Source of the DNA: Candidatus Omnitrophota bacterium
GTDB lineage: Bacteria > Omnitrophota > Gorgyraeia > S143-82
DNA: 64,000 nucleotides
Reading direction: 5' to 3'
Assembly (NCBI GenBank): GCA_015494465.1
Contig: WGBD01000004.1
Span: 68,627 to 132,626 of the forward strand
Both the position numbers and the translations under genes were made by a program. The first letter of the stretch is position 1; each line of letters starts with the position of its first letter. The notes under the pieces are model-generated. The model made no database searches, had not been told where the DNA came from, and was given only the letters and a program-made list of their open reading frames with translations. Shown piece after piece: positions 31,545 through 63,998 of this stretch.

Positions 31545-31636
31545 GACCTTACCTCCGTATTAATCGTTCCACCTGTCCCGGATACGAAGTACAAGGTTAT
31601 ATTTTATAACTCAATTTCCGGATCCTGAACAGCAAA

Positions 31637-32740: not shown

Positions 32741-32744
32741 CCGC

Positions 32745-34286
32745 CTAATCCAATCCCTCCTTTAGCATCGCCAGCAATCGGTCCTTCTGCACCTTACGCA
32801 GGGTATTCTTGGGCAACTCATCCAACAATATGATCCGCTGGGGCACCTTGTAATCTGCCAGTTTGGACTTCAGGTAGGCCTGGATCTCCCGAGGCGACAG
32901 GTCCCAGCCCTTCTTGAGGACCACGAAGGCATAGGGGACCTCTCCTTTGGTGCGGTGCTTCACCCCCACCACCGCGGACTCCTTGACCCCGGGGAGTTTG
33001 TTGAGGACCGCCTCTACCTCCCGGGGATATACATTCAGGCCCCGGACGATGATCATCTCCTTCTTCCTGCCTACGATGTAGATGTACCCGTCCCTGTCCT
33101 TGTATCCCAGATCCCCGGTCCTCAGCCATCCGTTCCTTATGGTCTCCCTGGTCTCGAGGGGCCTGCGATAGTATCCCAACATCACATTCGGTCCCTTTAC
33201 CAGTATCTCCCCTACCCTCCCCGCAGGGCACTCCTGCCCGTGCTCGTCCACTATCTTCACCTCCACATCCTTTATCGGCAGGCCAACCGATCCCGATCGG
33301 GGGGCAGAGATCGGATTCAAGGAGACCACAGGGGATGCCTCGGTGAGGCCGTAGCCCTCTAGGAGAGGTATGCCGTACTTGTTCTGGAACCTCTCTATAA
33401 TCCCTGGATCCAGAGCAGACGAGCCGGATATGGCAACCCGTATCGGCAGGATCCACCTTATAAGAAACCTGGGTAATTTTGGGAGTTTCGCATCCGCCAT
33501 TATGGAGAACAGAGGCGGTATACCTACAAGGATGGTTGCCCGTTCCTTTATGAGTCCCTTTACGATCGCCTTTACCCCTTGAGCGGGGTTGACGAAGACG
33601 ATCCGGGCTCCCACTGCCACTGGGGTAAGGGCACAGACCGTAAGTCCGAAGGAGTGGAACAAAGGGAGTAGACAAGGCACGCGATCCTTGCGGGAGAATG
33701 AGATGGCCAAAGAACACGACGCGATGTTGCTTAAGATGTTGTGATGGGAGAGCATTGCCCCCTTGGGCCTGCCAGTAGTACCGGAGGTGTAGATTATCAC
33801 CGCACACTGGTGTTCTTTGACCAAGGCAGGATCTGGGATGGGGTAGATCCCCTCCTTCTTTGCAACCGATTCCACATCTACAACATGTCGGATCCTACGA
33901 TTTTCCGACCTCAGCCCCTCCACCATCACGAATCGCTGAGAGTCGGTGAGGATTACCGCACTCCCACTGTCCTTGACCACATATCCCAATTCCTCTCGTT
34001 TCCACATGTAGTTGACCGGGACCGCGGTCGCCCCCAGTCTCCATATCGCAAAGTAACTGGCCAGGAATTCTATCGAATTGGGTAGGTACAAACAGACATT
34101 GTCCCCTGGCCTTACCCCCAAGAAGTGCAAGAAGGCCGAGAGGTGATCGACCTCCTCGGAGAACTTGGCGTAAGAGATCCTCCTGCTCCCCCCTACTAAG
34201 GCCAAGGCATTGGGGAACTCCTCTGCAGAGCGCTCTAAAAGTTGATATAGTCCCGCGTACTCGAATCCCCGGATCTCGACCGGCAT
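32745..34286 (-). CDS. AMP-dependent acyl-CoA synthetase / long-chain fatty-acid--CoA ligase family
   Basis: AMP-binding motif IIYTSGTTGRPKGAMLSH; GYGLTE and the C-terminal lid motif are present; 513 aa. Confidence 0.85.
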   Translation of the reverse strand: MPVEIRGFEYAGLYQLLERSAEEFPNALALVGGSRRISYAKFSEEVDHLSAFLHFLGVRPGDNVCLYLPNSIEFLASYFAIWRLGATAVPVNYMWKREELGYVVKDSGSAVILTDSQRFVMVEGLRSENRRIRHVVDVESVAKKEGIYPIPDPALVKEHQCAVIIYTSGTTGRPKGAMLSHHNILSNIASCSLAISFSRKDRVPCLLPLFHSFGLTVCALTPVAVGARIVFVNPAQGVKAIVKGLIKERATILVGIPPLFSIMADAKLPKLPRFLIRWILPIRVAISGSSALDPGIIERFQNKYGIPLLEGYGLTEASPVVSLNPISAPRSGSVGLPIKDVEVKIVDEHGQECPAGRVGEILVKGPNVMLGYYRRPLETRETIRNGWLRTGDLGYKDRDGYIYIVGRKKEMIIVRGLNVYPREVEAVLNKLPGVKESAVVGVKHRTKGEVPYAFVVLKKGWDLSPREIQAYLKSKLADYKVPQRIILLDELPKNTLRKVQKDRLLAMLKEGLD

Positions 34287-34289
34287 GCC

Positions 34290-37200
34290 TCACTCCTTCT
34301 TTACATACCAGCGAGCACTATATTCCATCGTATCGTAGCCGAAGTCCTGGCTAACCTCCCAAGAGCCTTCCTCGACCGGCAACTCCACCTCAGTCATTAT
34401 CGCGCCCCCCTTCCTGACCAACGACATCACCCATCGCCTGACCGGTAGTTTCTGAGCGTCGTCCAGGTACAATTCTACCACATTGTAGAGGAGCAGGTCT
34501 GCGGGTTTCAGGAAGACCTCCTTGACGATTTCCCGCCAGCCAGGATCGTTGAGGTCGATCGGGATGAAGTGGAACCTGGCCCTCTTTCTCCAGAGCCTTT
34601 GGTCAGGGGTGTACTCGTAGGGGGTGTTGGGTAATCTATGGGGCAACCAGATCTGGCTCTTCGCCTTATCTAGTACGGAAGGTGAGATGTCCAAGAGATA
34701 GAACTCCACATCCAGGTAGGGATGGGTCTTGAGCACTGGGTCCAGTATGTGCATGAGGGTAGCGGTTTCTTCTCCGTAAGACGACCCCACCGAAACGATA
34801 CGGATCCGATTCTCACCTTCAGAGGTGTGTTTTTCGAGTATCTCCGGTAGAAGGTCGTGCTCCAGGAAAAAGTAGGCCCGGGAGTTCCGATAGAAGTCCG
34901 TAGCGTGTACCAACCTGCTTTCCCTGACCCGCAGTTCCGCTACCCTTCTCAAGAGCTCGAGGAGCAGTCTCCGCCAGTTCTTCCGCCATTCTTTACCATG
35001 AGCAGAGACCTCAACCCTCTCTTTGCCCAGCAGTACAGATAAACCGATTTTATCGGCAGGCCCTGATGCCTTTATCTGCGCCAGATCCACCGTTTCCAAC
35101 CTCTCTATCTGGTCCTTCAGCCTCAACACATCCCTAGGGACGAAGCCCAAAAGAAAACCCGGCTGACTAGGTATGTACCCCAGGCCGGTCTGGTACTTGG
35201 AGGCACACCAAAATATGGACTCCGGATAGCTATCCACCTCCATCAGGGCGTTTACCTTCAAGGGACGGAAGTCCGAAACCAGGATGCCGTCCTCCTTGAG
35301 GAGGTCCTTAAAGAGAGCCTCGATGCCAGGCGTCTCTCCCCATAGGTTTTCGGAGGCCTTTAGGAAGGCAACCGAAAACTTTTTGACTCGAGCCATCTCC
35401 CGCAACCTATCCTGAACGCCTAATAGGCCCAGTCGGTGAGAGAGAAATCGCAATCTTCTCAGGGCTTTCTTCCCGGATATAGGGTGCCTCCAACGGAAAA
35501 GGACCTCCACCGCCTCCTCATCCACACGCACTCGTATGTCTTTAGCCCCCAGCAGGTACCTTATCTCGCCCAAGATGTACTTTCCGAGGGCCCCGTTTTC
35601 CCGCAGGCGCTCGCCCAAAAGGAATCCACCTCTCTTCCCAGCGTACTCCAAGTATTCCTGGAACTCGCTAAGAGAGACATCGTCGGGATGATCGCAACTG
35701 CCCCAAGGGATTACATCCACCATGGTGAGCGCCTCGCAATCGAACAGAAAGAAGGGATAAAACACATCCGATCCCGATGCAGGATAAAGAACGGATGAGG
35801 TGTCGTAGTGCTTAAAGTAATCCCAGTAAAGAATCAAAGTAGCCAGTCTTTGTGAAGAAAAGACCGGGACCATCTGGGCCGGCGAGATCTTGGTGAGAGA
35901 AATCAGCTGATCGAACCTAAACTTCTCCAGATCCTCTTGCCTGACGCCAACCGGAGCGATCCTCTCCGTGCGCTCGTAGAACCAAAAAGTGAGAGGTATA
36001 GTCACTCCTACCTTAACTCGCAGGCGCACGACGGTAGGTCTTGCCTCTTTTAATATCTTGATCAAGGCTCGACTGCTCTTTGGGGGCCGTTTGGGTTCCT
36101 TTATCCCGATTATGCTTGCAAACACCTCCTCCAGCTGATCAGCGGTCTTTACCTTCGTCACATCCTTCCAACTCAAACCCGCCCGGGATAACCCGGATTC
36201 GATCTCTATCCTCTCTACCACCTCTTCAGGGATCGCGATGTACTTCTCGTAATAGTGCCTGGTGAAGACCTCCCAGAACCGCTTCAGATACCGCTCGTCA
36301 GATAGGAAGACGAATCTCTCAAAGAGCCGATCCGGTCTAACGCACACGATCTTCCCGGATTCTTTCCTAAATATTCCGGAGATACCCAGCTCTCTGTCCC
36401 AACCGATACCACTACGAAGGAGGAGATCTCGAACCGCTTCCTCCTCCTGCGAATCCAAGGGCCTAGCACTGTCTCGGACCACGGAAAAGTGGAGGACATA
36501 ACCGCGTTCCGTGCGAAGGTATTCCCCGATACGGGCCTTGACCGTTATGTCGTTCTTTTCGAGGAGTTCGACTATCTCCCTTTTGGGCAAGGCATCGAGC
36601 CTGTAGAGTCTGTAGTTTAGGAGGCGATATACATCCTCTTCTCCTTCCACGCTTTGGGCGGGAGTCCTCTTATTGGCGATCTTGATTATCCTCAGGATCT
36701 CCGATCCTTCTTCTCCCGATATAAAGAGGTCGCTAGCCTCAGGCGGTGATTCTAGGGCACCTTTGAGGAGTGCCGTCAGATACTTCACCTGCCACAGTTT
36801 CCACAGCCCAGCTGGCCAAACATAATCCTCATCGTCGTAAAATACGGAGATATTCGGAGGTAAGGTAAACACCTGCAACGCCCCGGCCAGCTGGAGCCTA
36901 AACGCCTTCGGAGACCGCTTGAACAACGAACCCAAGGCCCGATAATAGGCCCCCTTCCTTCGGTGGAAAGGCAACAGGACCACCGCCCTCTTGGCCCCTT
37001 CCGGGAGCTCTCTTTGCATCTTCACGATCCGGTCCATGGGGGAGATCCCCTCGTAGGCCTTTAGTATCGGGGTAGATCTTGAGAGCTCTAGCACCTTACG
37101 AAGGAAGTTCACATCCGCAGGTGTGACCTTTGGCGGGTCCAGGAACGGGAAGTACCTCTCCTTCACCTCCAACAGCTCGGACAGATCCTCCGATTCGGGT

Positions 37201-39197
37201 TGCCTTGGGGGCAGAGAAGATCTTTGGGAGAATAGCTCCCGCTGGACCACGATTCGTATCCACGATTCGGCCCCCTCCCTCGGTGATAAATAGATCTTGG
37301 AAGGCAGACCTGTTTCCCCTACGGATATGTCCACCCTTTTACCTCCGGTCTTGGAAATCACCCTCGCGTACTTGGGGAGCAAGGCCCGCTTACCTTCCCT
37401 CGGTATGTAGAGGTAGTCGCCTTCCAAGACAGACACCTCTACCTCCTTCCCCAAGTCCAGCAACAACTCCCCTGCCTCCCAGGCCAGGGCAAGGGCAAGC
37501 GGGGTGCCTTTTATCCCGATGCGGAGCCTATCCCTACCTCGCATCCACTCCACTATCTCCCGGGTGTCGATCTTGACTCCTTCTCCTTTCAGGAAAGAGA
37601 ACATCTCTGCCAGCATCCCGTTCTTGCCTTTTACCTCGAGATCCACGGGCCGATCCGCGTAATGGGCAGACAAGACCAGTAGAAGGCCTGCGAGGTCCAA
37701 GACCCTATCCCGGGGCAAGTTCAATTCCCTAAGGAACTCCTTTATCGTGCTCCTGGCAAGCTGGATCTGGTGAGAAAAGTAAGAATCACCTGCCTCTTCA
37801 GATGAGATCCGATCTATCATCCGGTCGTACAGCGGGCCGAGTATAGGCAGAATGGCTTCCAGCTCCTCCCCAGAGAGGAAGGAGGCCAGGAATTCCCTGC
37901 CCTTCCCTCCGAGGTACTGCCACTGGATGAAGTTGATCACCAACTCTTCCCAGCTCTCTCCCTCGGAATAGTAGAGCCCCTTAAATCGAGACTCTATCGC
38001 CTCCAGGTCGAGTCGCTCTCGGGTAAGCCTCTTGGCTCGCGGTAGTAGTCCAGCGATCTTAGCATCCGAGGCGATGAGGTGGTGGAGGAGCTCGTGGAAG
38101 TGGACTACCTGAGGCGTGAGATCCAGCCCTGTCTCCTTCCTGAATAGGTCCTGCAACACGGATTCTATCAACGCGATCCTCTCTTCTGGCTCGCCGATGG
38201 ACCTAAGGTAGTCCCGCAACAGCACTGCTCTGGATATCCTCTCGTCCAGATAGCCAACTCCGTGGACAGCGATCCAGTCGATCACCTCCTCCTTCACGCC
38301 CAATCCCTTCAGCCTCTCTATCCATCCTTCCAGTATCGAGAGAGGCAAAGAAAAGGCAGGGTGCACTCGATTGGCCTTGAGCTCTATCCTCCGCCTCACT
38401 AGGTTGGCCCTGGGCAAGAACGAGAGCAATGGCTCCGGGATGAGCTGGGACCTTACCCCAGGAGGCCCTTCGTCTCCGCCTGGAAGAGGGTATATGACCT
38501 TTACCTTTGGGAAGTGCGCCCTCAAGTATCTCTCTATCCTTCGAAGGTGATAGCCACCCAGTACCACTGCCACTCGATCGTGCTTCGAAAGGGCTTGGGA
38601 TATCTGTCGAAGGAAGGCCTTCTCCCTTCGTCTGGAGAAGGAGTAAAAGGCGATTACATCCCTCAAGGCCTCGAGATCACCCCCACCTATGTCCAAAATC
38701 CGATAGAACTCCCCTGGGGTAATACGCAGGAGCACCGCCCTCCGAAAGAGGTCCACATCTATCAGTCCAGTGCGGTAAAGGTAGTCCAGTAGCTCTGTGC
38801 GATGGGAAGTGACCCAATGGAACATCTGGAGGTGGCGCAGATAGGCGTCTTTGTCCTCTAGACCCAGTAGTGTCCCACCCCTTTCGTAGGCCCAAAACTC
38901 CGCCCCGGAGAGCATCCCGCCCTCTACCAGAACCCTGACTTCTCGCGATGTGCAGCCCTTAAGAAAGCTGAGATCCGCCTTTCCCCATCCCCCTTCGCAC
39001 AGGACGACTTCAGGAGATAGCCTTGAGAGGCTGTCCGCTATCTCCAGTTGTACCTTAGGATAGTAGTGGAGGTCTGCGATCAGATAGAGGCCCTTTCTGG
39101 CCCCCCCATAGGCCACCGGAGCAAGCAAAAAGACCAAGCAAAAAAAGAGGCCTAACCGCTTAAAAAACACCCCGCCTCTCAACTGCATACGAGCCAC
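34290..39197 (-). CDS. Giant hypothetical protein (1635 aa) with an N-terminal signal peptide or membrane anchor and a C-terminal CheR-like SAM-dependent methyltransferase domain
   Basis: N-terminus MARMQLRGGVFFKRLGLFFCLVFLLAPVAYGG. The C-terminal region (nt ~34293-35075) carries RIRIVSVGSSYGEETATLMHIL and DLLLYNVVELYL, which resemble the CheR motifs RIWSAGCSTGEEPYS and DLIFCRNVLIYF. The stop lies 3 nt from the fadD-like start. Confidence 0.8.
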   Translation of the reverse strand: MARMQLRGGVFFKRLGLFFCLVFLLAPVAYGGARKGLYLIADLHYYPKVQLEIADSLSRLSPEVVLCEGGWGKADLSFLKGCTSREVRVLVEGGMLSGAEFWAYERGGTLLGLEDKDAYLRHLQMFHWVTSHRTELLDYLYRTGLIDVDLFRRAVLLRITPGEFYRILDIGGGDLEALRDVIAFYSFSRRREKAFLRQISQALSKHDRVAVVLGGYHLRRIERYLRAHFPKVKVIYPLPGGDEGPPGVRSQLIPEPLLSFLPRANLVRRRIELKANRVHPAFSLPLSILEGWIERLKGLGVKEEVIDWIAVHGVGYLDERISRAVLLRDYLRSIGEPEERIALIESVLQDLFRKETGLDLTPQVVHFHELLHHLIASDAKIAGLLPRAKRLTRERLDLEAIESRFKGLYYSEGESWEELVINFIQWQYLGGKGREFLASFLSGEELEAILPILGPLYDRMIDRISSEEAGDSYFSHQIQLARSTIKEFLRELNLPRDRVLDLAGLLLVLSAHYADRPVDLEVKGKNGMLAEMFSFLKGEGVKIDTREIVEWMRGRDRLRIGIKGTPLALALAWEAGELLLDLGKEVEVSVLEGDYLYIPREGKRALLPKYARVISKTGGKRVDISVGETGLPSKIYLSPREGAESWIRIVVQRELFSQRSSLPPRQPESEDLSELLEVKERYFPFLDPPKVTPADVNFLRKVLELSRSTPILKAYEGISPMDRIVKMQRELPEGAKRAVVLLPFHRRKGAYYRALGSLFKRSPKAFRLQLAGALQVFTLPPNISVFYDDEDYVWPAGLWKLWQVKYLTALLKGALESPPEASDLFISGEEGSEILRIIKIANKRTPAQSVEGEEDVYRLLNYRLYRLDALPKREIVELLEKNDITVKARIGEYLRTERGYVLHFSVVRDSARPLDSQEEEAVRDLLLRSGIGWDRELGISGIFRKESGKIVCVRPDRLFERFVFLSDERYLKRFWEVFTRHYYEKYIAIPEEVVERIEIESGLSRAGLSWKDVTKVKTADQLEEVFASIIGIKEPKRPPKSSRALIKILKEARPTVVRLRVKVGVTIPLTFWFYERTERIAPVGVRQEDLEKFRFDQLISLTKISPAQMVPVFSSQRLATLILYWDYFKHYDTSSVLYPASGSDVFYPFFLFDCEALTMVDVIPWGSCDHPDDVSLSEFQEYLEYAGKRGGFLLGERLRENGALGKYILGEIRYLLGAKDIRVRVDEEAVEVLFRWRHPISGKKALRRLRFLSHRLGLLGVQDRLREMARVKKFSVAFLKASENLWGETPGIEALFKDLLKEDGILVSDFRPLKVNALMEVDSYPESIFWCASKYQTGLGYIPSQPGFLLGFVPRDVLRLKDQIERLETVDLAQIKASGPADKIGLSVLLGKERVEVSAHGKEWRKNWRRLLLELLRRVAELRVRESRLVHATDFYRNSRAYFFLEHDLLPEILEKHTSEGENRIRIVSVGSSYGEETATLMHILDPVLKTHPYLDVEFYLLDISPSVLDKAKSQIWLPHRLPNTPYEYTPDQRLWRKRARFHFIPIDLNDPGWREIVKEVFLKPADLLLYNVVELYLDDAQKLPVRRWVMSLVRKGGAIMTEVELPVEEGSWEVSQDFGYDTMEYSARWYVKKE

Positions 39198-39224
39198 ACT
39201 CCGTCCTTTAAAAGGGAGGGCAGA

Positions 39225-39257
39225 GAGGCAAACCCTAGGTGGCGGAGAGTTTGCCTC
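39225..39257. other. Inverted repeat / RNA hairpin in the 150-nt spacer between the two 1.6-kaa giant genes
   Basis: GAGGCAAAC (39225-39233) pairs with GTTTGCCTC (39249-39257) across a 15-nt loop. There is no clean U-tract on the transcribed (minus) strand. Confidence 0.35.
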
Positions 39258-39347
39258 CCGTGGGGGACGATCGCGTTCAACATCTCAACCGTCAGCAGTT
39301 AATAATATAGCCCGATCTGCGAGCTTCGTCAAGTTTATTTAAACATT

Positions 39348-44315: not shown

Positions 44316-44330
44316 CCTTCCGTTTCTCTT

Positions 44331-59300: not shown

Positions 59301-62300
59301 TTGGACCATCCGTTTGGTAAGGGACTGCAGTGGCTTTCTCAAAGCAAACCGGGCAGGGAGGGCAACCGCATCGTAGAGGAGAGAGATGTCCAACAGGACC
59401 TCCGCGCTGTCCACCGCCCGAACGAAGAGAGGCTCTGATTCACCTCTCGCACGGGAGACCGCCTCAAACCGGGTCCCGACACTCCCTTCCCTCAAGGCCC
59501 TGACGAGCCCGCTCATCTCCGGAGATACCAAGGAAAGCGGTTGAGAGGCCCAGCCCACCAGCCGGTATCCCAGTCCCGTGGGTCTATAACTGCCCTTCTC
59601 GGGGGAGTATTCCAGCACGCCCTTGCCGTCTGGTCCGTATATCCTCTTGGGCAGTCCCGCTTTTATCCTCGCCAGTTTCCCTCCGGGAGATAAGGAATAA
59701 TACTGCTTATTACTGCCTTCCAAGATGTACCTTGCCAGAAACGATACCTCCCCCGCCCACTCCCTTGCCCGGAAAAACCTCGGCCTGAATATCGGAAGCC
59801 CCCTCTCGTCGCTCCCCAGATACACATAGTCCCTCCCGACCCTATCCTTCCAGGTCCCTCCAAATATGTGGTAATACGATTGACCGGGAGAGGGCAGCAG
59901 GGCACCGTTCCTGACCCGCATCAGCCCGGGCACCACCACCTCTACCGCCGGTACACCCTCAAATGTGTCCTCCAGTGAGACCAATGCCGGGAGATGGGAA
60001 AAGACCTTGGTATCTTTCAGATTAGCGGAAGAGATCCCTTTCTTCCGCCCCGCCTCCGGAAACGAGACTATACCCTGACCGACCTCCACCACCACATCCG
60101 GACTGTAGATTTCCACCTCCACCTCACCGGAATCCGACCTGCCTATACGAGAGGGGAGTCTGAGCATCGCCAGTCCAAAGGGCAGGCCGGAGCCCTCCAC
60201 ATACTGATACTCACCGAGGAACTTCAGGCCCTCCACATCCCCCAAGAGTTTGAACCGCCAACTTCCCTTTGCTCCGTTCTTACCTCCCATTCCAGACCGA
60301 TAAGAACCCTCCCCCCGGAGGCGAAAACCGAGCGTCGGGGCCCAGAAGACCTCCCCGGGCAAGACATAACCCGCCCGGGATAGGGCAATCTTCCGGGAAA
60401 GTGCTTTTGACCTGCCGTGCAAGTCCAAGAAGAGGCTCTCCTTCCCCCGATAGGGATCTATACGCTCCAGTTCAAAGGTAACCCGCCGAAACTGACGGGG
60501 GACGATCCTCTCCAGATCCTTTTTGAGGAGTTGAGCGAGGATCTCTCTCTTCTCCCGGGCAGATATGTTCCGGTCATAGGCCACCCGGGCGAGCATCTCC
60601 GCCAGCCTGTCCCCGTACTTATAACCGTCGGAGAGAATGTGTCGGTTCAGGACTTTGACCGCCTCAGCGTCGCCCAAGCGCAGGGAGTTCCAGACTCGAT
60701 CGAGAAGATAATCCACCACATCCGACCGGGTGGCAAAGAAGATGCGCCTTTCTCCCACCGGGATCCCCGATGACCTGAGGCTATCCAACACCATACCTAG
60801 GTACAATCCCTTGCTACCCAATCCCAATATCCTGTGGTTCAAGTCAATCTCCAGCATCCCGTCCCGCAGGGAAAGACCCACACCTTTCTCCCCCCGCAGG
60901 GCCCTGCGGATACCCTCCCTCTCCTGAGGGGGTAGAGATACATCCACAAGGGAAAGGAATGCCTTCCTCCCCGAAGCACTTTTATACCCCCTGTTCACAG
61001 CCATGTACACCGCGGAGTTGATCGCCACCGGCACCACTGAAGGTATCCCTCTGATACCGGGTGAGTAGTTCTCCTTCTCCACCCACTTACCGTTCTCCTC
61101 AACGAGGGGCAGGGAATACCCCTGAGAGGCATACCACCTGGAGGTGAGAAAGAGCCGTCGGGCCCGACCGGAGGTGTAGAGGGGATAGTCCACGAACAAC
61201 AACGGGAGCCCCATGCCTCCGTTGGGAAGACCCTGCGCATTGACCAGCGGGGCGGAGTGGCTTATCCGTTTCCCGGACCGGCCAAAGCCCTTGGCAAAGA
61301 GCCCGACACCATTGGTGAAGTCCCGGGAACCGAGCATCTCAAACAGGTGAACCACGATAAACGAACTGAACGCACAGTCCTGTTCCTGCATCGCCTTATA
61401 CGAAGAGAAGATCTGAGCAAGGGCCATGTCGTGCAGGGTCTTTTTAGAGATCTCTTTTACCTTATTTGAATAAGGCCGGGGCAAAAACGACCTCATCGCA
61501 GGGGAGGTCTTTGCGATTTCCTTGGAAAGTTCCCTCACCGTCATCTCCTTTATGTCCACCTCCGTCTTGCCCAGCACCCTGGCGATCCGTGCTATCCACA
61601 CAGGTACTATCATCCCTTCTCGCTCGAGATTACCTATCTTCTCGTCGAGCGACCCTCTCATACGATTCAACAAAGGACGGAACTCCTGCAGGAGGAGGCT
61701 ATCCAACAGCGCCTGCACCTTTTCCTCGTATCCGGGCTCTGCGGTATCTATCTTCTTCACCCCCTCCTCAAACCTCTCCATCACCCGCGCCAGTGCCTTT
61801 CGTTCCAGCCCCATCCTCTGCATAACCTTGCCTGCGGGCTCAACCGATCTGGCAGAGATCACCATCCAATCCCCGTCGAACTGCTTTCCCACCAAGGCAT
61901 CCGCAACCCGCTGGACCTTACCCAGCCAGAAGGGGCCAGAATCACCCGCAACCTCCAGCATCCTCTGGCTTTTTGGCTCTAGCCGACCCCTTTCATCGGT
62001 AAATACCCGAAAGACATCAACCAAGACAGGGGAAAACTCCCTTGGCGTGTCCATGTCGTAAAGGTAGAAGGTAGAGATCCTCGGGAAGGTCATCGTGTGC
62101 CTCGCAAAGTCCAAGGTCATCTTCCCGTCCACGGGAGAGATCGCCTTCAGCCTACCGGTGGTATCCCGGAAGAGGTAGACCCCAGTCCGCTCCTTCCTAC
62201 CAAGCCAGGTGGTAAGAGAATACACCTTCTTTATCCCCTCTCCCCGACCGAGATAGCGGATCTTATTCCCGGATAGGGTCACGAAGAAACTGACCCAACC

Positions 62301-63998
62301 CCTGCGGGCGGATACCTGATAGAGATTGGAAAAGTTCCCTATGGGGGTCAAGATCAACTCGGCCTTCACTGGGTAGAGAGGAGATCTCGCCTCTGCCTTT
62401 ATCTCCCGAAGCGGATTCAAGTCCACCACCTCGATCCCTGCTTTGGTAAAGGCGTAAATACCATTCTTCGTCGGCAAGAGAATCGCCTTGGTCTTTACAC
62501 GGTAATGTAGGGAGTTGGTGGAGAGTTCAGCTTCGTAGCTGGCATTCGCCCTAGGGCTTGGGGTAAGTCCGAAAAGGGAAACGCGATTGCGGTCCACCAC
62601 CGCTGCCCAGAACTGCCCACCACTAGCAGGGCAGAATCGATGGGAAAGAGAGGCCTTGCTCCTTCCCTTCAGCTCTAATTCGCCTACCTCCATCCTGCCG
62701 TTGAAGAGGGCCTCGCGGTGCCGAATCTCTATCAATTCCACCTCTTCTCTGGCGGTGATGGGCCTGCTCCAGCGGGCAAGCATGTACCCTTGCGAAGAGT
62801 ACCTGCCCTTCTGGTCCACGAGCAGGCCGTTGCTCATCTCCAGAGAGAGTGGGAGGGAGTGGAGTCTGCCCTTCGCATCGATCCTGTACCTGAAGACCTT
62901 GGAGGCCTTGGAGCTCGCCGGGAGGAGGATGTCCACTGCACCCCTGCGATCCCAGATCACATCCCTGCCCGTCTCGTTGACGATCCGCACATTCCTAAGG
63001 GCCAAGCGGTCGTAGGCCTGCCCCCCGACCCGCTGGACGAATACCGGAAGCCTGTCCGCTATAACCACCCGGGGAAACGGCCCATCGAGGGCATCTTTCA
63101 AGCGGACCTCCAACTGGGTCTTTAGGTGGTCTCCCTTCAGACCTCTATCTTTTTTGGGGAGAGAGGTAAGATAAGGAGAGATAAACGCACCCCGCTCCAA
63201 AAGGTGGACTATCCTGCCGGAGTTGGATAGGCGTTGACCGGATACGGAGGCCATACCTGAGTAGACGAACCGCTCTTTGCCCTTCTCGTCCAAGCGGATA
63301 ACCCTCTGGAATACCCGGGAACTGAACCCCCGAAAGTCTGCATCTATCCCCCGCACCTTTCTCCCCACCAGCTCGTATGCGGTGTAGAGCTGGTCGTACT
63401 TCCGCTCGATCAGGATCGTCTCCTTACCCTCCTTGAGGCTCTGAACGACCAGAGGATCACCCTTAAATCTCTCCCTCCTCAACAATAATGCCCGTTTACC
63501 TCTCAATCCCTCGTCCTGAAACTCCACCCAACCTCCGTTAGACAAGGCCCCGATCCAGGTATCTTGGGCGAGGTGGAACTGTTGGTCTCTGGCAACCTCG
63601 TAGATCCCCCCCTTCCTTTTAGTGACGGTCGGTCTGACGAAGGCCAGCCGTGCCCCATCAGAGAAGTTGGGGGTGAGGGGATCAGCTACCACGAGCTTAG
63701 GCGTGAAGTAGAGGTCCATGTAGGCCCGATTGGTACGGACCCAATCGGGACTTATCACCTCCCGGACCCAGATGGTACGGGGTTTAACGGGGCTCGGGGC
63801 GGATCGCAGTGCGGGAGAAGATGCCCCAGAACGCCCCCTCTTTTTGAATGTATGAGGAGAGGTAAGGAAGAACTCGTCCTCTATCCTCAACCGTATCCGC
63901 CCATCGGAGAAGAGCTCTGCAGAGAACAGCTTGTCAGGGGAAACCTCTCTCTTGACCGCCCCAGGGTTGGGCCTCTTGCTCCTAAACTCGTAGGCCAT
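44331..63998 (-). CDS. Giant multidomain protein of at least 6555 aa, probably 5'-truncated by the window edge. It is a mosaic of modifying-enzyme domains: 3 GNAT, 2 Pol-beta NTase, an APH-like kinase, 2 SAM methyltransferases, a LOG/SLOG domain and an arginase/deacetylase-like domain.
   Basis: A single uninterrupted reading frame of 19.67 kb on the minus strand, ending at a TAA (44331-44333), 15 nt upstream of the next gene's start. Domain motifs are listed in the sub-features below. The first ATG sits 2 nt from the window end, so the true N-terminus is unknown. Confidence 0.85.
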   Translation of the reverse strand: MAYEFRSKRPNPGAVKREVSPDKLFSAELFSDGRIRLRIEDEFFLTSPHTFKKRGRSGASSPALRSAPSPVKPRTIWVREVISPDWVRTNRAYMDLYFTPKLVVADPLTPNFSDGARLAFVRPTVTKRKGGIYEVARDQQFHLAQDTWIGALSNGGWVEFQDEGLRGKRALLLRRERFKGDPLVVQSLKEGKETILIERKYDQLYTAYELVGRKVRGIDADFRGFSSRVFQRVIRLDEKGKERFVYSGMASVSGQRLSNSGRIVHLLERGAFISPYLTSLPKKDRGLKGDHLKTQLEVRLKDALDGPFPRVVIADRLPVFVQRVGGQAYDRLALRNVRIVNETGRDVIWDRRGAVDILLPASSKASKVFRYRIDAKGRLHSLPLSLEMSNGLLVDQKGRYSSQGYMLARWSRPITAREEVELIEIRHREALFNGRMEVGELELKGRSKASLSHRFCPASGGQFWAAVVDRNRVSLFGLTPSPRANASYEAELSTNSLHYRVKTKAILLPTKNGIYAFTKAGIEVVDLNPLREIKAEARSPLYPVKAELILTPIGNFSNLYQVSARRGWVSFFVTLSGNKIRYLGRGEGIKKVYSLTTWLGRKERTGVYLFRDTTGRLKAISPVDGKMTLDFARHTMTFPRISTFYLYDMDTPREFSPVLVDVFRVFTDERGRLEPKSQRMLEVAGDSGPFWLGKVQRVADALVGKQFDGDWMVISARSVEPAGKVMQRMGLERKALARVMERFEEGVKKIDTAEPGYEEKVQALLDSLLLQEFRPLLNRMRGSLDEKIGNLEREGMIVPVWIARIARVLGKTEVDIKEMTVRELSKEIAKTSPAMRSFLPRPYSNKVKEISKKTLHDMALAQIFSSYKAMQEQDCAFSSFIVVHLFEMLGSRDFTNGVGLFAKGFGRSGKRISHSAPLVNAQGLPNGGMGLPLLFVDYPLYTSGRARRLFLTSRWYASQGYSLPLVEENGKWVEKENYSPGIRGIPSVVPVAINSAVYMAVNRGYKSASGRKAFLSLVDVSLPPQEREGIRRALRGEKGVGLSLRDGMLEIDLNHRILGLGSKGLYLGMVLDSLRSSGIPVGERRIFFATRSDVVDYLLDRVWNSLRLGDAEAVKVLNRHILSDGYKYGDRLAEMLARVAYDRNISAREKREILAQLLKKDLERIVPRQFRRVTFELERIDPYRGKESLFLDLHGRSKALSRKIALSRAGYVLPGEVFWAPTLGFRLRGEGSYRSGMGGKNGAKGSWRFKLLGDVEGLKFLGEYQYVEGSGLPFGLAMLRLPSRIGRSDSGEVEVEIYSPDVVVEVGQGIVSFPEAGRKKGISSANLKDTKVFSHLPALVSLEDTFEGVPAVEVVVPGLMRVRNGALLPSPGQSYYHIFGGTWKDRVGRDYVYLGSDERGLPIFRPRFFRAREWAGEVSFLARYILEGSNKQYYSLSPGGKLARIKAGLPKRIYGPDGKGVLEYSPEKGSYRPTGLGYRLVGWASQPLSLVSPEMSGLVRALREGSVGTRFEAVSRARGESEPLFVRAVDSAEVLLDISLLYDAVALPARFALRKPLQSLTKRMVQKTLSLPLKGYEGVGLAVARGLEFIDGGRVLSKVAYRYPKAVAGLSHTALALGLEGRYDSETYISDLRSGRVSPGGALLHRAFFLPARLISQDRVKNNLELSLLLQASRKANSPALAGAVVGIVDASVITGSLSPVILLARHPVESTKEFFSSLRDILTPATSLEEADRARMGYLAGLLAGAYRGYRAMGAEISAGQVRGLSYLGGVYRSSGDLVLMGIGFNIGVSAMRSGLTGANPDFFLRALSSAVQNGTDLVGSAFAGEFLFASGFKSIGYAKALVRRSPVYRLSFRRPEVARKASTALMAGGALAYGSSLLLPNRSEYRRASVLLSNLGLIGFGVGGLWRLGINRIIASRRAEIRALSVPARLYEHARDSALLVSSSTSLFYGTRNLLLNKVAEITGRESSAERSELPYILLTSPLVVTSVLIADRVGGRFRYSPGRGGFTGVKEWILADTRGARAGFYRELDLWRYAERDRSVLSRMRGADYLLQSAVPFGIGVYMDAKGRDDWAGLFYSLGGVMAIAGLSRMGLGYAVVKRRLSPRVAARISSLVHHYGVERTLIPAASTLFLVMPALHTAVVGTSYLYRRYALPYARSEVERGVFGVLSAFSDDTAVGRLKTVMSRPGIVNKAFGLLDYSLGMTLFGTSTAKGKGVRDIMPSAYAFSLMMGPLMGPSQAFLKGIRKGDFGRIYRSAGEALETVSSFGLRDLRLGRPRPALSLMGRARDVVLKGTMEEVVAEQLIGLGLSPWTSALAVAGVPGTMFLQELLEEVMTPGGSAYEDDNWAPLFRAIAKGRSVAGELYLPYESPQAGVPQKVVLRNWSDVLRLPEGARFRYDTKDGRREVTAGDDIFRTARIMQTFELYREEGIDDETVAEVLATPVGPFNGVDEVQRSAMGMILGEKLSREELLSEAPVIEFGGRRLLKEEVLPEIALYYSLISEGDVEESDSPELSAYARILSGKNAELGYASLMDLQLGRSEERIYRSSTSSEAVRGLGAYALEEIRRELEYIGNKDRLALPRYAQEFVDTGRAFRRMSPEDLRRLEKHKGSSAEEFWSAVRRAHIKALKRTLSHPTFSLWEAEAVETAWRLRQVHPSSVGEDTVFAVDKGGYALVWNKGGRVKKVSFSGISLLDDAELGPATRGGEVYFNAGRWFRAEVPRLLRDYYGVKGHVLVQVDPALYGTETKVNVVPGFGYRLFVSENLAKEINRNPHLLTPTLISAFVRFDRRRTVLQRASNLAEFLRLPVDKKSKAYLGVRRALTNPKGRALYADKEALWELASSLRVEEDRLSRVLRGGVYRRIDRAVSIAKKRRQDLTRKGEGVDTAFVRELLDWLEKGRPVSVKTSERAEVLAELAYYDEVLRSRWIAGVASSEEGNYAHLNKRVAELERMVEQAPAIGQEHRLLASIDYLVNRAGDEYTGRSVERLRRAYTYWLKRQTIEQVDARGLFLRALEEVANSSWWSVGQKARFMRDYQRLISTIKGAEGSDWGSVVRSLKREFPDSLVQKELPEEVEVRAVLNPALDHGGWAQLTPEKRIEVEVRGFEKVSGRAGLVPYDQSLTGIIVPHELTHIILDFVGRRYGLSGLSIGDDRTDEIIHRIVDPSSLKRLPIYAWAETTGSRGPGSAHRSAMGDGAVSWGSGDPGLPSPRSGGTSSSLVSRDEKRPEPRTRIELAMFKYGLSPRDWRIRDISDRVSHVVAIVDKKTGIPRFVLKHSPWHYPGALWEVELLDSFRRIDATFPVPRYRLNQAIQSITLVSGDKFLLYDWVDGVRLAEINEAHRNEGARVLARFHAYGLLFRPRRGWRNYDRIGSFMGPNDRRLPRLLRGYQRISSKKDLGRGERLFLDYWETFRDEVERLRKSYPGIWPVLPKTVIHGDFALRNLLWRDGKIALVADLDTARIETRIFDLVRADSFYGWGSGDRNEVLNGLADWLIRYHYYADELGLGLREAEIRAIRHMVGIFGVVQYLWLLRFGSMELVDRYDSAYQDFSNRLSLSRALLKFEGWKDWEESVLRELRLLSPRTSSSLADEGVSLVSWPELPEDRKESAIRLVEKAQKYFGESYPVVRREDLLRDKIFALSGKRVVGFISYHLSDLGLDNRIGIPPFLKVGEVFVEETYRGKGIDKKLFFSLLSLAEDRGVLQLETSTVVPRREPLSFWQKVVDRVNQMGRWKARILPYLGREGLYVSIERQRSSSALREDPLRDRVNKRVIESILRNRARMWRKVGSLEEIVQGLELGDYPVLGRAGIYPGEVRFWQGLFDQYDPSTTEMYSYGLKENLLLELPQRIIAVVDDQHYGFGVVSYAVKRGIVPQGANMLHIDDHKDLNDLTDPGLLPELEALVRDLSPNDAAHHRALLSNLDVGNWIRPLITLGLVSERNWRGVMVKLPSMDLRYYDLRGETTLPLKTWPSLIGRLRSDWGIETDRGRWIDILDVDLDFVRESFSWAEREHRLLVEELIPKAKVVILATSPGYIAQKRAIGLARQFLAGVGTSSSLRRVISSRGLDVVGLESALKRASTLLGARITLVGSARYLLPRGETHLPLTLVGDLDLVVHDSWITREHRVVKAINRALSRMNPFGDRILRNGERWELQSLGYIGRALGLKAMKVDLVCNERFAEEQRRLAQRHLPTVMYILRTYRKGSLVRQAVKRAIWIMEELAYPESDRVDWMKRELIARASDEVVPEGLRQELLKRMQELHTWLQTKSSASSINQRRLVREFRSIERLGRRMKGPTLVVFGSARVKPEERAYASVREITHYLARAGFNVLTGAGPGIMTAGNEGAFRANPERSCGIGILIPGEPKNPYLLDKNQTKCKYFLTRQTGLIRLANAVLVGPGGLGTLNEVVDVLAMGKHREVPHLPIAFLDESFYSGFVNFLNELVEKKRLAHIRLRSISTVRGWEDSAEFYSKNTPLPPRAGMDKVWRFVGDVLRADATIQKLAPANEIVSVLVPSKEDVMTYYNRRIYTSAEWMIKHLLRSNKRVLLQVGKRLRLLTKKSSTEIPYEYSFTRKWLVSSFSQSGIYAFLPDILTLNSVLDVSTLIQTKKISHASEVNLFPDSSWKHFKGWVRSSLLQGGYISAGDLDIFRETSPREFVDKVSSSLNDNSFVQKLKIADEMGRTVATVGIVNTKEAIFIPYLEVHQRGRGWGGRVVRYIVSLARTQFPHKDVLVGAVWNPILGKILLEYGFLPEDLEKAMYVWLLPKRDDVIRLGRILGDKEVFDVLREGGKRMFGTKIILEEDRAPDNLIGPIPINCRYRLITSRDFPYELLSTKLSFVRMRRLFSLRTNSVDELFSNLYDSVRIGDVLGYLVALNSLALSGGSQHIWTWLDPFLVQYSHLVRLGIKGFIDWMKMGGVELSDIYLTGSIVRERALPGSDVDGLLPWNRVILLSGRKMDDPSRVEAEFREFGEKLGLRVEDDVLAVGKEEKVLMVGPDYIKRASISRLLPPRATGYHRGSWILDEDVPVHEKGRYREGLINLYLQSGLEGRDAIRRVIGAVGAVLLYPEAVKSVEVCLSPRQVSQFSQRDLELITSFRWVPGDVSEKDLVMSKIRISTQASSLKEAVFWPFVKEERRLCIDGLCCFFHPGELFPGPIRYALAREGLIRSFSQNISPLNRAVAVRTYTSLSTFGIKYPCKGLSVNIRVSPHNPDLLWVECGCALYDRRPQLCKDWPDRYRDAQCCLYLQSRKGTQLRIGFDLTRLEGARVVEAFQEYRPGLILDRGVYEYLQKKREEGEQELWLDLEVGLARYVDTSRRRYLGPSSLTGDRTKHYLHIVSAGGGGDILGASLLGLLAKDGLIPLPGIPKGRDVKLLLYSPNLKRAVEQKAIGPYPIRRLETRDGRPLPRWRGADGFYRVNSPDVYLNGGDRRPLAESRVYALFSSAGEDAEVVIFDLNRSGFDLAKGLAGVARTALPGRHSFVFLDMGGDILMRIPYPLRNGNRQFHPERYIRSPNTDSMCLDVAVMLKGLIGEAHSVRVGVMALGGDGELRETGLEYMRQLLREKDVEVIDLLSALYKNKRPFSQRIPLIRRLVDEIESEVSKYFLLRTLFLANKDWVRGEDVPKFKLDCLEGRRAVFLNPADLFLSVRGCELPLRGSTRKEVLSPAYFRLFLLYPTDLFSRIGIRGIDQDRVSILSYGGNWWRKDWFHRSLGFVTEVTDPSNVRIREMRKKSASSLVERDLAELDLQGIPISLSLSSSRFQRWITAHLKKGNGRIGLLRYSVLGNLDRAFIGEWGDFDFWVNHGWRRKGLGRLILAFALMEMLKEEVSSVQVFMPRTSLYETFGIKDRVAVPGSPRTLQGRIDFSNVVSGLETTAGPDQVKIRSFRSFGYSDPALLEYASKLEMTIQGLDEYEEISDRLVRDMGRFVPSRLLKILPGLHDLRFFSSANAIRLSRIYEVGSGDGRVAFLLKKAFPQAKVVGIEYDRELVSFSRELGRQIGLALPDVEFSNANALEKDLSDADGIYYFLCSCYQYFGGEYLGYEDQLFKKFKETLRPGALLMLYHPFEKPFVRNRLEMLGPEFSPVVRGEDFSILQKGVSSSLRKGRIVPFVRTELRAVREGALGLYELYFIQYGPQNPKGTSYPEPLFRFQVMYSPDGRQAYVHLELNKAHPDTRPELLARVFSRAVKAVVRRQEEITDCLELVHVRMPMDDWFFDVVEKIDWDGIVRGLRFEIVGMWGDSLVLKRTETPSSPMTGHRNFHPLLSISAHPELSYFLGKQIVGKRILSLGAGEGSFESLLARKNLVIGLDIDPKMPLLARRKGVTVVRADMLDLPFSNSSFDLLLYPFSLSCLDKEGIVRTFTEASRVLRDRGEILVILPWVGEGSGVRPRYSLQDVLGQLREVHPFEIIVADDEVSIDVPSRGTVTKPLIFVRAENRLPRMVNPLELGQIWEELQRYYFRVIEPLVLERLAKGIYLTGGLLRGRFRESSDVDIAVDLTVKGLRQMASVVDRINSFGRDYPKIHVNYHPYGFVYRFEGDRPVFEGRKGQFKKRDHLLLRLEF
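44334..44700 (-). other. Giant-ORF domain: C-terminal minimal nucleotidyltransferase (Pol-beta superfamily)
   Basis: GIYLTGGLLRGRFRESSDVDIAVDL fits the hG[GS]x9-13Dh[DE]h motif. Confidence 0.7.
44770..45255 (-). other. Giant-ORF domain: class I SAM-dependent methyltransferase (Methyltransf_11-like)
   Basis: Motif I ILSLGAGEGSF; acidic end of beta2 GLDID; post-I motif VVRADMLDLPFSNSSFDLLL. Confidence 0.65.
45730..46275 (-). other. Giant-ORF domain: second class I SAM-dependent methyltransferase
   Basis: Motif I RIYEVGSGDGRVA; GIEYD; LEKDLSDADGIYYFL. Confidence 0.6.
46450..46725 (-). other. Giant-ORF domain: GNAT acetyltransferase-like
   Basis: Motif A WVNHGWRRKGLGRLILAFAL (verified on the minus strand at nt ~46600-46645). 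Confidence 0.6.
49030..49365 (-). other. Giant-ORF domain: nucleotidyltransferase (Pol-beta superfamily), internal copy
   Basis: IYLTGSIVRERALPGSDVDGLL. Confidence 0.6.
49690..50025 (-). other. Giant-ORF domain: GNAT acetyltransferase-like
   Basis: LEVHQRGRGWGGRVVRYIVSLA (Q/RxxGxG/A acetyl-CoA-binding motif). Confidence 0.55.
50650..51134 (-). other. Giant-ORF domain: LOG / TIGR00730 (Lysine_decarbox, SLOG) Rossmann-fold domain
   Basis: MKGPTLVVFGSARV...TGAGPGIMTAGNEGA...VLVGPGGLGTLNEVVD (both GGxGxM and PGGxGTxxE motifs). Coordinates verified on the nucleotide sequence (ATG at 51134-51132). Confidence 0.7.
51850..52545 (-). other. Giant-ORF domain: arginase/ureohydrolase- or deacetylase-like fold (tentative)
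   Basis: IIAVVDDQHYGFG ... ANMLHIDDHKDLND (DxHxD) ... WIDILDVDLDFV (SxDxDxxDP-like). The match to the three ureohydrolase motifs is imperfect. Confidence 0.4.
52840..53145 (-). other. Giant-ORF domain: GNAT acetyltransferase-like
   Basis: RVVGFISYHL...VGEVFVEETYRGKGIDKKLFFSLLSLAEDRG. Confidence 0.55.
53350..54225 (-). other. Giant-ORF domain: aminoglycoside-phosphotransferase / protein-kinase-like fold
   Basis: Brenner motif VIHGDFALRNLL (HGDxxxxN) followed by IALVADLDTA (DFG-equivalent Asp); verified at nt ~53665-53700. Confidence 0.6.

Follow-up and report, generated by a model that had tools for sequence, protein, structure and literature searches.

A lineage-restricted giant-protein locus in an Omnitrophota bacterium and its conserved gene pair with predicted SidJ-type and CheR-type domains

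The window analysed here is a stretch of 64,000 nucleotides (nt) of contig WGBD01000004.1 from a Candidatus Omnitrophota bacterium (assembly GCA_015494465.1). According to the open reading frame (ORF) listing of the window, five consecutive ORFs lie on its minus strand: three giant genes, which are called G, B and C in the following, a gene for a FadD-like acyl-CoA ligase (D) and a gene for a DUF763 protein (E) (Table 1; all positions are in window numbering). An earlier note on this DNA had treated the five genes as one candidate system for coupled synthesis, modification or export. Our analysis points to a smaller unit: B and C are conserved as a pair, B is predicted to carry two tandem domains of the type found in the Legionella pneumophila glutamylase SidJ, and C is predicted to end in a CheR-type methyltransferase domain. 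The interpretation preferred here, which we consider about evenly poised between right and wrong, is that of a lineage-restricted giant-protein locus, whose core B-C would be an exported protein-carboxylate-modifying pair and in which G would be a clade-specific polyenzyme.

Tandem SidJ-type domains in protein B

Protein B has no match in Pfam, NCBIfam, PADLOC or PHROGs. It contains, however, an internal duplication (30% identity, E 7e-32), whose two copies are listed as domains 1 and 2 in Table 1. Repeat 1 alone, used as a single sequence in phmmer, matches the kinase-like domain of Legionella SidJ in the PDB with an E of 1.5e-6, and a profile of four repeat copies matches SidJ residues 347-546 with an E of 1.3e-9. 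The match in the PDB does not extend beyond the kinase-like domain, and no similarity to the other domains of SidJ was detected; a motif scan of B also found no IQ-type calmodulin-binding motif. Ten catalytic or invariant residues of SidJ were examined; for eight of these (R352, K367, H492, R522, N534, R536, D542 and N733), the aligned position is invariant in both B repeats. Their counterparts are R479, K489, H622, R654, N666, R668, D674 and N888 in repeat 1 and R1045, K1059, H1190, R1224, N1236, R1238, D1244 and N1466 in repeat 2, with the match to N733 (N888/N1466) situated in a segment that does not score significantly by itself. The counterparts of K367, N534 and D542 (K489/N666/D674 and K1059/N1236/D1244) are invariant in both repeats, both orthologs and 15 giant homologs, and across the same 15 homologs the columns of H492 and N733 are invariant as well, while those of R522 and R536 are nearly so. 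In SidJ, K367, N534 and D542 serve in ATP/Mg binding and adenylation, H492 and N733 stabilise the acyl-adenylate and R522 positions the donor glutamate (Osinski et al. 2021). SidJ homologs from outside Legionella lack the calmodulin- and SidE-binding features and must act on other substrates and depend on other activators (Osinski et al. 2021). On the strength of these alignments, B carries two predicted SidJ-type domains in tandem, in which every alignable catalytic residue is conserved.

The N-terminus of B, MRKGFLCLGLSLLLLGGAIAWA-EADL, is positively charged and then hydrophobic and resembles a signal peptide by eye and in Kyte-Doolittle plots. A second transmembrane helix at residues 409-427, which would have placed the SidJ domains in the cytoplasm, was considered and rejected, as the distant B ortholog P0014 has no such helix at this position. 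At its other end, B terminates with the residues GHGGIDIGF (window 39348-39380), and a motif of the form GGI[DEY][FLIW], often GGIDFRALP, recurs in several unrelated SidJ-like giants. It is found either at the C-terminus or around 100 amino acids (aa) before it in P0014, P0015, P0022, P0042, P0046, P0057 and P0066 and may be a sorting or processing signal.

Domains of protein C

The only family match in C lies in its C-terminal ~180 aa, which reach 36.7 bits for Pfam family PF01739 (cutoff 27); a profile of C also matches B. subtilis CheR (5ftw, E 7.4e-6). The C homolog P0013 scores 40.6 bits for the CheR domain that binds S-adenosylmethionine (SAM), with the match spanning profile positions 3-172 of 195. 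The SAM-site motifs of C, VGSSYGEE and YNVVELY, are intact motifs of the GxGxGEE type and of the form NVxxY, respectively. Profile matches and motifs together identify a predicted CheR-type domain at the end of C. CheR enzymes methyl-esterify glutamates of proteins. No che genes and no genes for methyl-accepting chemotaxis proteins (MCPs) were present among the scanned genes of the window.

In an alignment with a 33%-identical homolog, the N-terminal domain of C shows the conserved blocks D-x-H, PEVVLxEGGWG, SGAEFW and GGYH. It is possibly a TraB/ChaN/EreA-like hydrolase of the TraB/PrgY/GumN-ChaN-EreA (TIKI-like) superfamily, an assignment that is based on an AlphaFold2 model of C. The HELLH motif that follows belongs to the 12-residue stretch TPQVVHFHELLH, which is invariant in a three-sequence alignment including the 33%-identical homolog, and the blocks of the model around HELLH reach predicted local distance difference test (pLDDT) values of 79-89 despite a mean of 52.7 for the whole model. 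Pfam searches with the HExxH regions of C and G yielded no family match. Like B, protein C starts with a positively charged and then hydrophobic, signal-like stretch, again judged by eye and Kyte-Doolittle analysis, and the description of both 1.6-kaa (thousand-residue) proteins as beginning with hydrophobic signal or anchor sequences, which the earlier note had given, can be retained. Between the HELLH motif and the CheR-type domain lies a conserved block V.YPASGSDVF.P...M.D..PWGS (window 35148-35840, aa ~1120-1350), which by eye resembles the [GA][AS]G[AS]D segments of P0016 and P0022. The HExxH, PASGSD and CheR regions of C gave only marginal hidden Markov model (HMM) matches to SidJ-like giants (E 0.04-0.7); aa ~1120-1350 may be a second, divergent methyltransferase-like domain.

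Conservation of the B-C pair

Relatives of B and C are rare among 5.8e9 clustered proteins, and those of B form only two clusters at 90% identity. Distant orthologs, with 32% identity to B, are P0014, a full-length protein of 1825 aa and the best match of an exhaustive SidJ-repeat search, and a fragment at locus L034. Homologs of C are P0012 (79% identity), P0013 (33% over 98% of its length) and a 1706-aa protein at locus L036. In L034, the B homolog (32%) is located directly upstream of the C homolog P0013 (33%), which is followed by genes for a UDP-glucose dehydrogenase, an aminotransferase and a PD-(D/E)XK ATPase; FadD, DUF763 and V/A-ATPase genes are not there. In L036, the order is MCP, P0015 (1092 aa, one SidJ-like domain), P0014, a spacer, the 1706-aa C homolog, UvrD and MetE. 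The MCP of this locus contains HAMP and MCPsignal domains, and its gene and that of P0015 (L036 4557-10004) have the same orientation as that of P0014, from which they are separated by short gaps or an overlap. Neither L034 nor L036 gave a tblastn match to G, D or E. Since the adjacency of B and C persists at ~32% identity, while D and E are absent and the genes downstream differ between the two loci, the conserved unit is B-C, and G is adjacent to this pair only in the clade of the window.

A second line of evidence comes from domain fusions. In a HMMER search, a profile built from both SidJ-like repeats retrieved 215 representatives among 1.84e9, many of them giants of 2-5.5 kaa. According to an HMM of the N-terminal domain of C, six of the 149 best SidJ-like proteins carry this domain at their own N-terminus, namely P0082, P0019, P0016, P0090, P0136 and P0039, with E values of 1e-20 to 5.5e-7. 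B-type and C-type domains are linked independently of the window, since they are fused in these six proteins from elsewhere. The fused giants sit singly amid housekeeping genes and have almost no Pfam annotation. Neither the C alignment nor the SidJ-repeat alignment had a match in scans of metagenome contigs. Gene order and fusion both identify B and C as a conserved and, on this evidence, functionally linked pair.

The two genes that follow C belong to widespread families. D is a full-length AMP-binding protein (321.8 bits for AMP-binding and 77.7 bits for AMP-binding_C in Pfam) and reaches 455.7 bits against NCBIfam PRK06187 (cutoff 476); by these scores, it appears to be an ordinary long-chain acyl-CoA ligase of a generic family. 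E is a DUF763 protein (Pfam PF05559, E 9e-121). Among 30 DUF763 loci of many phyla, none has an AMP-binding, B, C or G gene as neighbour. D and E are plain neighbours of B-C outside the conserved unit; they may be co-transcribed with C in this compact genome. The five-gene claim of the earlier note thus has to be divided. The coordinates of the ORFs agree with five co-oriented minus-strand genes with gaps of 15 (G/B), 150 (B/C), 3 (C/D) and 4 nt (D/E), and the giants are indeed genuine, lineage-restricted, enzyme-rich and, for B and C, linked by adjacency and fusion, but they are not part of a five-gene unit. When the proposed check of gene co-occurrence and order in relatives was carried out, only B and C were found next to each other in L034 and L036, D and E were absent, and G was absent in L036. 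Nor is the run of five genes a bounded array, as the tight co-oriented run continues, 92 nt past gene E, into the genes for V/A-ATPase A and B and, in a sister assembly, further on into phosphoribosyltransferase, amidase, racemase and queuosine genes. Because it extends into these unrelated genes, the tight spacing at the locus reflects genome compaction. The acyl-adenylate theme that had been suggested for the locus survives in the two predicted SidJ-type adenylating domains of B, but not in FadD as a specialised partner, which has the scores of an ordinary ligase.

The B-C intergenic region

The 150-nt spacer between B and C contains the hairpin that had been noticed before and, in addition, the sequence of the region that comes closest to a sigma-70-like promoter. 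Both hexamers of this promoter-like site are retained in L034 and L036. Downstream of it lies a 55-nt element, GTCCCCCACGGGAGGCAAACTCTCCGCCACCTAGGGTTTGCCTCTCTGCCCTCCC, which is identical in L034 and L036 save two positions, although the flanking proteins are only ~32% identical. Both substitutions keep the pairing of the hairpin (U-A to U-G and U-G to U-A). The element occurs once per locus, and its counterparts are found in the regions L034 2412-2477 and L036 15647-15701. It has no Rfam match at E<=10 and is not present in the fused SidJ-like giants elsewhere. The 5' arm of the element contains GGGAGG, and a CCCUCCC sequence follows the hairpin upstream of a purine-rich ribosome-binding site, a placement that invites a model of translational control. 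The element is a candidate for a new cis-regulatory RNA or small RNA, and C probably has its own regulated, conserved promoter. The apparent presence of this promoter weakens the view of G to E as a single operon.

The giant protein G

Gene G reaches the end of the window, where its first visible ATG is only 2 nt from the edge. The full-length gene, which encodes 8047 aa, is present on contig JALUEM010000002.1 (782 kb, GCA_027052805.1). The absence of a signal peptide from the apparent start of the 6555-aa protein, to which the earlier note had drawn attention, is therefore uninformative, since the true N-terminus lies ~1492 aa upstream. G had also been described as a cytoplasmic multi-enzyme giant; a cluster of ~9 hydrophobic helices (Kyte-Doolittle) now argues against a purely cytoplasmic protein. 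With a scan length of 19 aa, the helices reach hydropathy peaks of 1.1-1.84 and contain 0-1 charged residues, and the mean hydropathy of G is positive only in this region. The first ~3200-3300 visible residues of G have no Pfam, NCBIfam, PDB or PHROG match. A protein-database search with aa 1-3000 returned no match, G itself included, so that very long proteins seem to be absent from this database, and aa 1-1000 had no match in species-representative genome contigs, among which the source lineage is not represented.

The C-terminal part of G is a string of enzyme domains in the order APH/CotS-like kinase, GNAT, UPF0489 (arginase-like), LOG/PpnN-like nucleotide nucleosidase (LOG domain PDB match E 4e-23), NTP_transf_2, DUF1152, GNAT, class I SAM methyltransferase, a second SAM methyltransferase and Pol-beta-type nucleotidyltransferase. 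Between the domains lie ~11 linkers of the [A/S]SSL type. The strict motif [AS]SSL occurs 7 times, compared with 0.26 occurrences expected from 2000 shuffles, and the codons used for it differ. In a 69%-identical ortholog, the linker motif is kept and the flanks diverge. Because the motif is conserved while the flanks vary and the codons differ, [A/S]SSL is selected at the protein level and would be a processing, modification or docking site. Upstream of the first linker, G contains a single HExxH motif, but an AlphaFold2 model of aa 2600-3216 has a mean pLDDT of 41.1 and is unusable for a candidate protease fold. Pfam and NCBIfam searches with the visible 6555 aa of G and the neighbouring genes detected no RTX or glycine-rich repeats, no cysteine protease domain and no type I secretion system, and BLAST revealed neither internal repeats in G or C nor any similarity among G, B, C, D and E. 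Helices, domains and linkers define G as a predicted membrane-associated enzyme array with conserved linkers. The sole hint, and a weak one, that joins a G-type architecture with B-type domains is P0022, a protein of 2130 aa from an unrelated metagenome, in which an M48 HExxH peptidase domain and [A/T]SSAV linkers (6 seen versus 0.8 expected) accompany a SidJ-like domain.

Integrity and evolution of the giant genes

An identical gene order with uninterrupted reading frames was recovered in four assemblies from different samples, one of which was taken at a hydrothermal chimney of Brothers volcano at 1591 m depth. In comparison with the orthologous locus L003, the ratio of non-synonymous to synonymous substitution rates (dN/dS) is 0.155 for G, 0.172 for B and 0.201 for C, and 0.07, 0.12 and 0.05 for D, E and AtpA, respectively. 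The giants share 69-80% identity with their L003 counterparts, while D, E and AtpA share 85-95% (93% for the FadD-like D). G, B and C are clearly genuine genes under purifying selection, which evolve faster than D, E and AtpA. Together they occupy about 34 kb of a compact genome, in which, as stated before, neighbouring genes overlap; the overlaps between adjacent genes of the window amount to 4-17 nt. Because of this cost, G, B and C probably matter for the way of life of the organism.

Possible functions of the locus and competing explanations

If the locus is built around B-C as a carboxylate-modifying pair, B would adenylate protein carboxylate side chains and then ligate an amino acid to them, and C would methyl-esterify or hydrolyse the same kind of carboxylate site on a substrate shared with B. 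Both proteins are proposed to be exported, because both begin with signal-like sequences, and would act at the envelope or in another cell. G would be a membrane-embedded polyenzyme. At the [A/S]SSL linkers, its C-terminal domains would either stay tethered or be separated by cleavage, in which case the HExxH domain of G may be the protease. Several points weigh against this interpretation. For protein B, SidJ residues R500 and Y506 fall into a gapped loop, in which the alignment to B is unreliable. For protein C, sequence searches of Pfam and the PDB found no match to the N-terminal domain, nor did a profile search of the PDB, the model on which the TraB/ChaN assignment is based has the mean pLDDT of 52.7 given above, and the helical domain CheR_N is not matched at E<=10. 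The predicted export of B and C is read only from N-terminal charge and hydrophobicity (by eye and Kyte-Doolittle), and exported enzymes that depend on ATP and SAM would face a periplasm devoid of these cofactors, which casts doubt on the predicted topology or on the place where they act; this difficulty favours action inside another cell or an error in the crude topology call. The B-C pair is carried by only three independent lineages. G, moreover, is not located beside B-C in L036, and the L034 contig ends before its place could show; G has no detectable similarity to the SidJ-like giants, and it could be read here for 6555 of its 8047 aa, with the N-terminal ~1492 aa and the upstream region outside the window. 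A far more specific version of the proposal would see the locus as a novel protein-carboxylate modification system, in which the tandem SidJ-type protein B would adenylate and amino-acylate its target, the CheR-type methyltransferase/hydrolase C would oppose this reaction, an ultraconserved riboswitch-like leader would control the pair, both proteins would be exported by a small-genome vent bacterium onto another cell or its own surface, and G would be a membrane polyprotein that processes itself at [A/S]SSL sites and so sets free a dozen enzymes for the modification of nucleotides and proteins. This version seems rather improbable as a whole.

The same domains could be those of a multi-effector toxin or host-manipulation locus. 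G would then be a MARTX- or polyvalent-like protein, whose hydrophobic region translocates an enzyme cargo that is freed at SSSL, and B and C would be secreted effectors that use the ATP and SAM of the target cell, as SidJ does. Such a role would fit the combination of signal-like N-termini with ATP- and SAM-dependent folds in B and C, the fact that the sole characterised members of the SidJ family are translocated effectors, and the composition of G with its enzyme array, conserved linkers ending in Leu, single HExxH motif and hydrophobic cluster. The LOG-type nucleosidase and nucleotidyltransferase domains resemble parts of conflict systems, the genome region is compact, with 782 kb for the longest locus-bearing contig, and giant multi-transmembrane, multi-enzyme proteins have been reported in ultra-small predatory Omnitrophota (West-Roberts et al. 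2023, bioRxiv 10.1101/2023.11.21.568195). However, the visible part of G shows no RTX, cysteine protease domain, type I or type VI secretion, Rhs or other delivery signature, and no immunity-like small genes are evident. PADLOC returned only one match, to a methyltransferase domain (mad2), and PHROGs only the LOG/DprA-like domain; dN/dS values of 0.15-0.20 give no sign of the diversification expected from an arms race, and the fused homologs sit singly amid housekeeping genes. We regard an effector locus as doubtful, though worth keeping in mind. The chemistry of B and C would also suit a self-directed role in signalling or envelope adaptation, in which the CheR-type domain of C and the glutamate ligase domains of B tune the cell's own receptor-like or envelope proteins and G is a separate housekeeping polyenzyme. 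Besides the CheR-type domain itself, the MCP gene (HAMP + MCPsignal) of L036, which lies two genes upstream of P0014 and directly upstream of P0015, points in this direction, as does the fact that both SidJ and CheR chemistry target glutamate gamma-carboxyls, which for CheR is established knowledge. Against it stand the lack of MCP or che genes near B-C in the window and in L034, the missing CheR N-terminal domain of C and the cytoplasmic position of MCP methylation sites, since B and C look exported; the lone co-occurrence with an MCP may be due to chance, and we consider this explanation unlikely.

A five-gene system for coupled synthesis, modification or export that includes the FadD-like D and DUF763, for instance one that lipidates a surface polymer or the giant proteins, can draw on the gaps of 3-4 nt between C, D and E, on the same gene order in four closely related assemblies and on the acyl-adenylate chemistry that is shared by FadD and SidJ-type domains. 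The comparative data argue strongly in the other direction: neither FadD nor DUF763 is found near B-C in L034 or L036, the 30 DUF763 loci have neither AMP-binding nor giant-gene neighbours, FadD is generic and far more conserved than the giants (93% versus 69-80%), and the tight run extends into unrelated genes (V/A-ATPase, queuosine). Such a system is very unlikely. Giant ORFs, large unannotated stretches, very few database relatives and a GC content that ranges from 0.51 to 0.60 across G could finally raise the suspicion of assembly chimeras, decaying pseudogenes or prophage or mobile-element cargo such as a polyvalent protein. The frames are intact in four assemblies from different samples with dN/dS values of 0.15-0.20, though, and no PHROG match besides the LOG/DprA-like domain, no hit in a viral-contig scan and no integrase or transposase among the scanned genes were found, with flanks that consist of core metabolism; an artefact or mobile DNA is hardly credible as an explanation. 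With these alternatives weighed, the lineage-restricted locus with B-C at its core remains the preferred interpretation.

Relation to known systems

The closest characterised relatives of the B domains are SidJ and SdjA, the calmodulin-dependent glutamylases of Legionella pneumophila. The B repeats align to the kinase-like domain and retain eight residues, but B has two tandem domains instead of one, with ~20-25% identity, no similarity to the SidE-binding N-terminal domain or the C-terminal domain and no IQ motif. B furthermore has a Sec-type signal-like N-terminus rather than a Dot/Icm signal, comes from a vent host and has no SidE homolog in its visible neighbourhood. The function of SidJ-type ligases has been worked out for Legionella alone, and no substrate, partner or context has been established for the homologs that exist in other organisms (Osinski et al. 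2021). The metagenomic SidJ-like giants (P0016, P0019, P0022, P0082, P0090 and others) share the SidJ-like domain and the conserved catalytic columns with B, and six of them share the N-terminal domain of C. In P0022, Ser-rich linkers of the form [A/T]SSAV and an HExxH peptidase domain are also present, and its C-terminal GGIDF motif is similar to the GGIDIGF end of B. Unlike B and C, however, these giants are single fused genes without the 55-nt leader and without detectable similarity to G. Protein C shares the SAM-binding domain and its motifs with CheR, but in C this is the last domain of a 1635-aa exported-looking protein, in which no N-terminal helical domain was detected, and no che genes are present among the scanned genes of the window.

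Giant proteins of the 'archaeovorin' type have been described in Omnitrophota; these contain transmembrane segments and divergent enzyme domains including Lysine_decarbox/LOG, and their internal peptidase domains were suggested as a potential means of self-processing (West-Roberts et al. 2023, bioRxiv 10.1101/2023.11.21.568195). G resembles them as a very long ORF in a compact genome with transmembrane segments and many divergent enzyme domains including LOG. It is different in that it has 8 rather than >30 kaa, no SecA-DEAD in its visible part and no sequence similarity that could be found, and its regular [A/S]SSL linkers and the adjacent SidJ-like gene were not described for that type. The array of unrelated enzyme domains with putative linker cleavage sites also recalls MARTX toxins and the polyvalent proteins of phages or conjugative elements; no RTX repeats, cysteine protease domain, type I secretion system or phage context were seen for the visible part of G, however. 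In MARTX toxins, an internal protease frees domains, which are arranged like beads on a string, by cutting at short linker sites after Leu. Taken together, the locus is a variant within two poorly charted groups, the non-Legionella SidJ-family ligases and the giant multi-enzyme proteins of uncultivated bacteria. B-C gives SidJ homologs a genetically linked partner, which is backed by adjacency and domain fusion, and offers putatively thermostable tandem domains with conserved aligned catalytic residues as well as a candidate regulatory RNA, and its set of domains is seen again in a rare group of "dark" proteins of 2-5.5 kaa (215 representatives among 1.84e9). G clearly illustrates a giant array of enzymes that are joined by conserved linkers at regular intervals, with which polyprotein processing in bacteria becomes testable by proteomics.

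Features and surroundings of the locus

The positions of the genes, domains and regulatory elements are compiled in Table 1. For gene C, annotators take an ATG 9 nt further downstream as the start, which results in a protein of 1632 aa.

Table 1. Genes, protein regions and spacer elements of the locus in window numbering
Feature	Position	Strand	Description and basis
Gene G	44331..63998	-	6555 codons visible, 3' part of an 8047-aa gene; truncated by the window end
Gene B	39348..44315	-	ORF, 1655 aa; N-terminal signal-like sequence and two SidJ-like domains
Gene C	34290..39197	-	ORF, 1635 aa from GTG; N-terminal signal-like sequence
Gene D	32745..34286	-	FadD-like long-chain acyl-CoA ligase, 513 aa; neighbour outside the conserved module
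Gene E	31637..32740	-	DUF763 protein, 367 aa; neighbour outside the conserved module
G, cluster of ~9 candidate transmembrane helices, aa 1685-2324 (window numbering)	57027..58946	-	Kyte-Doolittle
G, HELTH, sole HExxH motif, aa 3129-3133	54600..54614	-	Motif scan; ~85 aa before the first SSSL linker
G, C-terminal string of at least 10 enzyme domains, 3340 aa, aa 3216 to end	44331..54353	-	Pfam, NCBIfam, PDB
B, SidJ-like kinase-fold domain 1, aa 477-901	41613..42887	-	PDB phmmer E 1.5e-6; profile E 1.3e-9
B, SidJ-like kinase-fold domain 2, aa 1043-1479	39879..41189	-	Internal duplication; motifs invariant in both copies and both orthologs
C, N-terminal domain, aa 30-265	38403..39110	-	Invariant D-x-H, E-G, R and GG-x-H motifs
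C, HELLH motif, aa 368-372	38082..38096	-	Inside the invariant stretch TPQVVHFHELLH
C, CheR-type SAM-dependent methyltransferase domain (predicted), aa ~1423-1600	34398..34931	-	PF01739 and 5ftw profile match
Promoter-like site TTGACG-17-TATATT	39304..39332	-	Best sigma-70-like match (10/12) within 28000-46000
55-nt element GTCCCCCACGGGAGGCAAACTCTCCGCCACCTAGGGTTTGCCTCTCTGCCCTCCC, 14-bp hairpin	39214..39268	-	Upstream of gene C

The D and E proteins of the window differ in a few residues from those of GCA_027052805.1 and match a third NCBI assembly exactly. Because of these differences, the window represents a strain or assembly that is closely related to JALUEM010000002.1 but is not that contig. 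The genes for V/A-ATPase A, which has a TTG start, and V/A-ATPase B (27843-31544, minus strand) overlap by 17 nt and adjoin the DUF763 gene instead of genes for other ATPase subunits. The remainder of the window encodes bacterial housekeeping proteins, among them GroEL, SerA, PurD, enolase, GAPDH, GatA/B, SHMT, a PilC/T2SS-F protein and a GGDEF protein. An ORF of 1182 aa on the plus strand (2824-6372) has an unusual architecture, in which an N-terminal GGDEF domain is followed by an AAA_16 (STAND-like) ATPase domain and ~800 unannotated aa.

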